A DNA stretch of 11,296 nt from a virus (taxonomy: Duplodnaviria; Heunggongvirae; Uroviricota; Caudoviricetes): IMG/VR virus record IMGVR_UViG_2534681736_000004. The stretch is one strand, 5' to 3'. The notes beneath the pieces are model-generated. The model was not told where the DNA came from, did no database searches, and worked only from the letters and a program-made list of their open reading frames with translations. The position numbers and the translations under genes were made by a program. Shown in pieces: positions 2,409 to 4,016 of this stretch. Numbering within the stretch: position 1 is the first letter of the stretch; every line of letters starts with the position of its first letter.

Positions 2409-2953
2409 GCCTCCATCGCTTTATCCGGTTTGTCGGTGTTACTGCCCTGACCGTTCTCTCTGTGACGATGCCCGTTATAGGCAAGCCGCATCGCTGACAT
2501 GGTAGTGCCGCTGGAGTCGCACAGGTCTTTCACCTGTCCTGTCACTTCCAGGTCCATTTCAAAACGTGCTTTAGGTGAATTGCGAAACGTGATCGTTTTA
2601 CCTGCACCGTCCACCACGATCCCCTCCCGGGTCAGCGTCACAGACTGCCCCTGATCGTCATAGACAGCCACCTCACCCGTCTGCAACCCTTTCAGGCGGT
2701 AGCGCCGGTCCGACACCGTAACAACCACCGCATGAGAACGGTCGCCATCCGGAAACAACACCACCGCTTCCGCGCCGCTGTTTGCCCTTGCGGTAAAACC
2801 GTAGGGTTCAAGATGTTCAACCCCGGCTTTGGGTTCACCGGCAATCAGGGACACATCCACGGTCTGACATTTCGTGGCGGCACTGATGCTTTTCACCACT
2901 GCCCGCGCAATCAGGCCGAGAAGTTGTCGCTGCATGGCTTCAATCGTCCTCAT
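2405..2953 (-). CDS. Baseplate spike / baseplate assembly protein V (Mu gp45 / P2 gpV class)
   Basis: 182 aa ORF, ATG at 2953-2951 sharing one base with the stop of the hub gene (TGATG). C-terminal LAYNGHRHRENGQGS resembles the histidine-containing spike-tip motif of gpV-type proteins. Position after the hub gene fits. Confidence 0.7.
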   Translation of the reverse strand: MRTIEAMQRQLLGLIARAVVKSISAATKCQTVDVSLIAGEPKAGVEHLEPYGFTARANSGAEAVVLFPDGDRSHAVVVTVSDRRYRLKGLQTGEVAVYDDQGQSVTLTREGIVVDGAGKTITFRNSPKARFEMDLEVTGQVKDLCDSSGTTMSAMRLAYNGHRHRENGQGSNTDKPDKAMEA

Positions 2954-4016
2954 CAGAACGGGTCCTCCTGTACTCTGGCTTTTTTCTTTTTCCGCGCGCC
3001 GGGGGCTTCGGGTTCAGGCAGATAAGCATCAGGCGGGCCGACACGGATTTCCGTCAGGGTGCCGTTCTGGTCCTGAGTAAACGTGACTTCCGAGACAAGC
3101 AGTTCGGTATTGTCGAAACCACAGACTGGATCGAAGACAATCACCCGCTGGTTGGGCTGCCACAGCGTACCGTTACCCTGTCGCCAGCCCTGCACCACAT
3201 AGGTGGTTTCATCCGTCCGCGCCGCCCGTTGTCGGGCTTCAAAGTCAGCACGCGCAATACAGCCTGCCCCCGTGGCCTGCCCTGTCTGCCTGATATACAT
3301 CGGACGGTAACGGGCAATAAATGCGTCCTCTGTGCGGGCCCGCAGCGCGGTGGTGGTGACCTCACCGAAATCATCGTCGTTTCCGGCACGCTGCCCCGCC
3401 ACCTGGTAAACAGAAAACCGCTCCCGGATACTCTTCTCCGTATCACAGGAAAGGATGTTTTCCCCAAGTACCAGCGCGGTATGTGCCCGCGTTGAGCCAA
3501 TACCGCCAATCACCAGCCTGCCGTGCGGATCGTCGTAAGCCAGCGCCTGCTGCTGACCGAGTATTTTGTTGATAACCTCAATCACCGTTTCACCGTGATC
3601 AGGCTGAACATCAGGAATAACACCCGACGGCGCACCGCTGTTCACCACCTCAATGCCGAAAGGCGCAGCAAGCGCCTGCGCAATCTGCACCAGCGAGCGT
3701 CCGTTAAACTGTGTCGGTTCGGCTGCACAGTCAATCAGGTCAGCCGTCAGACTACGTCCGGCAATACCGGTGCTGACCGAACGGGAGTCGCCTCCACCCA
3801 GCCGGTGATCACCAGCTCATCACCAATCAGCACTTCCACTTTTGAACCGTTTTTAATGCGCGGCTGAAGCGTGGTGATACCCTCATCTCCCGGCCACTGG
3901 CGAGTGATCTCCACACTGAAATCCCGCGCCAGCCGTTCAATACCGGCACCGATGCGCACCGATGTCCAGCCATTCCACTCCCGGCCATTTACCCGTAGCG
4001 TGACATTGTCGTTCAT
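2953..4016 (-). pseudogene. Baseplate hub protein (Mu gpP / P2 gpD, late control gene D family) interrupted by a frame change
   Basis: Two ORFs in different frames: N-terminal piece 3747..4016 (89 aa, ATG at 4016, ATGA overlap with the N-like gene) and C-terminal piece 2953..3690 (track start is a GTG). My translation shows the C-terminal frame stays open upstream to about 3817 (...SRSVSTGIAGRSLTADLIDCAAEPTQFNGRSLVQIAQAL...), so the two frames overlap across about 3750-3817. Combined length of about 354 aa fits a single hub gene (Mu P is about 379 aa). A sequencing indel, true pseudogenisation or recoding cannot be told apart from sequence alone. Confidence 0.55.

Follow-up and report, generated by a model that had tools for sequence, protein, structure and literature searches.

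The window, the 11,296-nucleotide stretch of DNA analysed here, very probably carries a baseplate hub gene of a decaying SfV-like prophage integrated at thrW, which was inactivated by a recent, repeat-mediated 16-bp deletion and now appears as two open reading frames (ORFs) on the minus strand. The coordinates of these ORFs and of the associated features are listed in Table 1.

Table 1 Coordinates of the split hub gene, the deletion junction and the interrupted head-tail connector gene in the window
Feature	Position	Strand	Details
5′ fragment ORF	3747..4016	-	89 aa, ATG start, frame 1 (ORF list, minus-strand translations)
3′ fragment ORF	2953..3690	-	245 aa, GTG start (native Val115), frame 3 (ORF list)
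Predicted baseplate hub pseudogene (Mu gpP/gp44 homologue)	2953..4016	-	1064 nt (intact gene: 1080 nt, encoding 359 aa)
Zone with both frames open	3747..3816	-	70 nt
Deletion junction, single remaining CCCGTTCG copy	3778..3785	-	Alignment and exact prefix/suffix comparison
IS629 right end	11230..11296		100% over 67 nt to annotated IS629 copies
Head-tail connector gene, 3′ part	11108..11229	-	Severed by IS629 after nt 203 of 324

Two reading frames of one baseplate hub gene

An earlier note on this DNA had described a baseplate hub gene split into two ORFs in different frames, and the coordinates that it gave for both match the ORF list exactly. The three minus-strand translations show frame 1 beginning with the ATG at 4016 and ending with a TGA at 3749-3747, and frame 3 free of stops from 3816 until the one at 2953. 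The two frames are indeed open together, as the earlier note held, although the limits of the shared zone are 3747-3816 and not about 3750-3817. The 5′ fragment comprises native residues 1-80 followed by nine out-of-frame residues (SAPVLPDVV) and the TGA; the native frame is picked up again at the deletion junction (about 3785), at Arg84/Ser85, in the other frame. No canonical start codon for the 3′ part was found between 3816 and 3690. The GTG at 3690 lies 57 nt downstream of the stop of the 5′ fragment, and a GGA is the sole Shine-Dalgarno-like element within the 15 nt that precede it. Plus-strand ORFs in this region, such as 3523..3867 and 3229..3495, are antisense to this well-supported hub coding gene and are taken to be spurious.

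Judging from their predicted domains, the two ORFs are halves of a single baseplate hub gene of the Mu gene P/gp44 family, because the intact allele holds all of their domains in one chain of 359 aa. Pfam assigns the 89-aa ORF to GpP-like_1st (E = 1e-20), the match covering positions 2-70 of a profile of 85. The matches of the 245-aa ORF are to Gp44-like_2nd, beginning at profile position 23, to the third domain and to GpP_4th; both fragments are identical to the matching parts of the intact allele, in which Pfam places all GpP/Gp44 domains in a single polypeptide. The intact allele aligns continuously over the break point with Mu gp44 (PDB 1WRU; E = 2.3e-50, residues 1-348), with the MuSo2 protein (3CDD; E = 5.5e-52, residues 3-337) and with a third solved homologue, 3D37. 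It shares both the domain series and the gene position of Mu gp44 (gene P; 1WRU, 9KI1) and MuSo2 3CDD. In the window, by contrast, the domain series is divided between two ORFs: the 16-bp deletion interrupts domain 1 itself rather than a boundary between domains, the ORF starting at the GTG enters domain 2 only after its first 22 profile positions, and the full chain can no longer be encoded.

Gene order points in the same direction. The module reads sheath, tube, Phage_TAC_7, tape measure, DNA_circ_N, split gene, Gp45, GP46, Baseplate_J (gp47) and Gp48, and the flanking genes match the Pfam families Phage_sheath, Tail_tube, PhageMin_Tail, DNA_circ_N, Phage_Mu_Gp45, GP46, Baseplate_J and Phage_Mu_Gp48. 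The split gene thus occupies the position of the hub, after the tape measure and DNA-circulation (gpN-like) genes and before gp45, gp46, gp47 and gp48. The matches of the intact allele to 1WRU and 3CDD and this position between the gpN-like gene and gp45 uphold the hub identification made in the earlier note. From the evidence of its sequence, the window copy is to be classed as a pseudogene of the Mu gpP/gp44 family and not as a functional member.

The closest phage relatives are SfV orf16 and its equivalents in SfI, SfII and SfIV, which belong to phages of the thrW-integrating type and have the same flanking genes. In 12 phage records (SfV, SfI, SfII, SfIV and relatives), the gene is annotated as a single ORF of 1080 nt with 96-97% nucleotide identity; in SfV, SfI, SfII and SfIV this continuous ORF contains both CCCGTTCG repeats, unlike the window.

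The preceding DNA-circulation (gpN-like) gene (4013-5383, minus strand) encodes 456 aa from its first ATG, whereas RefSeq uses a downstream start that yields 442 aa (1329 nt). Its stop codon overlaps the start codon of the hub gene (ATGA at 4013-4016), indicating translational coupling into the latter.

A 16-bp deletion between short direct repeats

DNA alignment shows that the hub gene in the window is missing 16 bp relative to strain 7784 and phage SfV. The intact allele in both has the order ...GCGACT-CCCGTTCG-TTACGATG-CCCGTTCG-GTCAGC..., that is, two copies of CCCGTTCG, of which the window has one. What has been lost is one 8-bp CCCGTTCG copy and the 8-bp spacer TTACGATG. Exact prefix/suffix comparison with strain 7784 gives a junction microhomology of 8 bp and otherwise 0 mismatches in the hub gene. 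The single remaining CCCGTTCG copy is the pattern expected of a deletion between short direct repeats, and this pattern makes replication slippage or microhomology-mediated deletion the likely mechanism. The single-base indel that the earlier note had entertained is not what the alignment to intact relatives reveals. The split is no chance arrangement of ORFs but results from a defined gap, seen against over 1000 sequences that are otherwise nearly identical.

The 16 bases amount to five codons plus one base, and the reading frame is disrupted accordingly: a stop follows 80 native and 9 foreign codons in the window, whereas the ORF of strain SS TX 313-1 is intact. When window positions 1-11229 are compared with SS TX 313-1, the 16-bp gap is the only difference, with zero substitutions. 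Since the two are otherwise free of differences over 11,229 nt, the hub deletion appears to be recent. Deletion between two 8-bp CCCGTTCG repeats, lying 8 bp apart in the ancestral allele, has very probably inactivated the hub gene: the frame changes after Arg80, in the first hub domain, a stop follows nine codons later, and the remaining 274 native codons are left without a start site of their own. Were translation to reinitiate at the GTG at 3690 after the stop at 3747, the product would lack residues 81-114.

Distribution of the split and intact alleles

The 1064-nt region was searched by megablast against 5,426 complete E. coli genomes, of which 1100 records matched, 1088 of them covering at least 80% of the query. 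Six records reach 99% identity or more (100% over 1064 nt), and the remaining 1089 near-full matches fall at 95-99%; among the matches listed, every one in the latter range spans 1080 nt. The intact allele is therefore present in about 1080 E. coli genomes, and the split allele in 6 of about 1092-1100 matching ones. The six carriers, all complete genomes of O157:H7 strains, are FRIK944, FRIK2455, FRIK2533, FRIK2069, 2-6-2 and BB24-1. FRIK944 and FRIK2455 originate from Florida cattle, 2-6-2 from Nebraska cattle and BB24-1 from cattle. FRIK2455 is identical to the window over positions 53-11229. The allele is flagged by PGAP as "phage baseplate assembly protein, frameshifted" in all three annotations inspected (FRIK944, FRIK2455 and 2-6-2); an identical allele is thus already marked as frameshifted in public annotation, and the finding is in this respect an ordinary one. 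A literature search returned no published discussion of the hub lesion.

Five resistance genes are common to exactly the six carriers and SS TX 313-1 (PMC10731853). This shared set suggests that the carriers are related and that their common allele is best explained by inheritance. Diversity of the 11-kb window among strains (0-1 differences) is too low for a SNP test of a carrier clade, and the relatedness of the carriers accordingly rests on the shared resistance-gene profile (PMC10731853). Taken together, the hub mutation is, with high confidence, real and was passed down in a small group of related O157:H7 strains associated with cattle. The 16-bp deletion could consequently serve as a marker for the lineage of this small, related, multi-resistant cattle group.

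Alternative explanations for the split

The earlier note had considered a sequencing or assembly error to be equally likely, in which case the strain would possess an intact 1080-nt gene from which 16 bp were lost in assembly. The allele of the window strain does rest on a single assembly, and several of the carrier genomes contain other annotated prophage frameshifts, such as those in the tail-fibre genes of FRIK2455. However, the gap measures 16 bp and has repeat-bounded ends, unlike a homopolymer single-base error, and the same allele, with an identical gap, occurs in six complete genomes drawn from two or more strain collections, whereas some 1080 others keep the 16 bp. Such recurrence makes an assembly error very unlikely, and the relatedness of the carriers by shared resistance genes is what would be expected for an inherited mutation.

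Programmed recoding, in which ribosomes would shift by -1 (or +2) within the overlap and so make a full-length hub, would take advantage of the 70 nt over which both frames are open together, and a real -1 frameshift site does appear to exist elsewhere in the operon. The tail assembly chaperone gene (Pfam Phage_TAC_7; 7379..7648, minus strand) contains the heptamer T_TTT_TTC at 7397-7391, three codons before its stop, and the ORF in the -1 frame (window 7224-7412) provides an extension of about 55 codons to 7224, overlapping the start of the tape measure gene at 7237. Over about 226 nt, this stretch differs from SfV by two substitutions, neither of which affects the heptamer; RefSeq annotates only the short 89-aa chaperone product, leaving a "gap" of 141 nt. 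The chaperone gene thus looks like one with a genuine programmed -1 frameshift, and it matches the conserved tail-chaperone frameshift reportedly described by Xu, Hendrix and Duda (2004). The hub overlap zone has none of these features: neither an X_XXY_YYZ slippery heptamer nor a homopolymer of at least 4 bases was found in 3747-3816. In addition, none of the relatives and viable phages inspected shows the two-frame layout, all having one continuous ORF, and even restoration of the frame would leave out conserved domain 1 residues, at least Tyr81-Asp82-Ala83. The earlier note's judgement that recoding was the less likely option is borne out, and we regard it as exceedingly improbable, even more so than an assembly error. 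The same low probability applies to a functional split, in which two separately expressed polypeptides, or two genuine genes, would act together as the hub. Each fragment retains recognisable Pfam domains, and termination-reinitiation at the GTG at 3690, 57 nt past the stop, is conceivable. Yet this GTG lacks a proper Shine-Dalgarno sequence, the break inside domain 1 and the truncated start of domain 2 do not respect domain boundaries, and a two-gene arrangement was seen in no homologue examined, the solved homologues and viable phages having a single chain of about 360 aa. Moreover, only 6 of 1092 matching genomes have the split allele, and the deletion is its sole difference from an intact allele. 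The idea that the 89-aa and 245-aa ORFs represent two separate conserved genes was rejected, as all E. coli relatives with annotation inspected, and the phage relatives, carry one ORF.

Predicted consequences for tail assembly

In phage Mu, gp44 trimers form the central hub for baseplate assembly, and mutants in gene P make heads but no tails. Because of this phenotype and the central place of gp44 in the baseplate, no functional tails are expected in carriers of the repeat-mediated deletion: without the hub, the baseplate would not be nucleated, and heads without tails would be the most that induction could yield. The hub gene matches at one place only in the carrier records listed, which indicates that these contain no near-identical second copy to complement it. 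The deletion may also affect neighbouring genes. Among the downstream baseplate genes, the stop of one overlaps the start of the next (as at 2953), and with about 800 nt now presumably untranslated, polarity on gp45 to gp48 is plausible, the premature stop possibly reducing the coupled expression of these genes.

The copy of the SfV-like thrW prophage in the window is thus probably unable to build its own tail, making it unlikely that the strain releases infectious particles of this phage. For the full-length O157:H7 prophage at thrW, a literature search found no induction data. Beyond annotation, the significance of the lesion is small. In a more novel scenario, which we consider very improbable, the pair of 8-bp repeats would be a hot-spot of recurrent deletion and selection would favour hub loss in some cattle-associated O157:H7 strains, for instance because cargo and immunity genes would be retained without infectious particles being made; the lesion would then represent adaptive domestication rather than neutral decay.

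Other lesions of the thrW prophage in O157:H7

The window prophage is, with little doubt, an SfV-like element that occupies thrW in E. coli O157:H7 and encodes a contractile tail of the Mu type. In FRIK944, the full-length prophage of about 36 kb lies between tRNA-Thr (thrW) and a P4-like element and encodes an integrase, regulators, a lysis cassette, HK97-type head genes, a Mu-type tail and a Pin-invertible tail-fibre segment. The related phage SfI integrates at thrW and is induced as free particles, with a contractile tail seen by electron microscopy (PMC3636060). The FRIK944 prophage also carries iss, encoding the increased serum survival lipoprotein (locus 14357-14650), on the opposite strand just past the lysis cassette; this is a possible cargo gene, the retention of which would be independent of tail function.

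Collinearity with FRIK944 ends at window position 11229, which corresponds to locus position 21366 inside the connector CDS (21164-21487). The 67-nt IS629 end that occupies the remainder of the window is matched in VT1-Sakai (where it is described as "inverted repeat from right end of IS629"), CP-1639 and phage 2851, and IS3-family copies matching the window end number in the thousands in E. coli genomes. Hence, the assertion that every other gene of the operon is intact has to be withdrawn for the connector gene at the window edge, and the window strain has two independent lesions, the hub deletion and the IS629 insertion. FRIK944, FRIK2455 and 2-6-2 have the same split hub as the window but lack IS629 in the head-tail connector gene. 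No contiguous match over window positions 1-11296 was found among the 5,426 complete E. coli genomes. Strain N8B7-2 matches in two pieces, probably because of an IS copy lying some 2.6 kb from this point, which may be in the portal gene like that of SS TX 313-1.

Different damage is apparent in other O157:H7 strains. In the SS TX 313-1 prophage, an IS1203/IS629 element splits the portal gene (locus 8133-10672), and the HNH endonuclease gene is frameshifted. In strain Sakai, the thrW site is occupied by Sp1 (locus 5043-15628), which we take to be equivalent to CP-933H of EDL933. Sp1 resides at the same thrW site beside the P4-like Sp2 and has the same Pin-invertible tail-fibre end as the window prophage, but it has shrunk to a 10.6-kb remnant devoid of head, tail and baseplate genes, all of which the window prophage keeps with point lesions only; the Sakai deletion is estimated from the two element lengths at roughly 25 kb. 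The presence of different lesions in different O157:H7 strains indicates that the prophage has been degraded independently, which supports the decay reading. Together with the 16-bp repeat-bounded deletion in six carriers and the IS629 insertion in the connector gene, it bears out the suggestion of the earlier note that the prophage is decaying. The hub deletion is thus highly likely to be one of several independent lesions degrading the thrW prophage across the O157:H7 population, in which prophages would be disabled piecemeal by repeat-mediated microdeletion, IS629 insertions and, in the case of Sakai Sp1, a large deletion.

At the opposite edge of the window, positions 1-52 are collinear with 2-6-2, 7784 and SS TX 313-1, whereas in FRIK944, FRIK2455 and Sakai they match the other arm of the tail-fibre segment inverted by Pin (pinE). 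A 20-bp overlap at window positions 53-72 indicates where, within the tail-fibre gene, the inversion crosses over.
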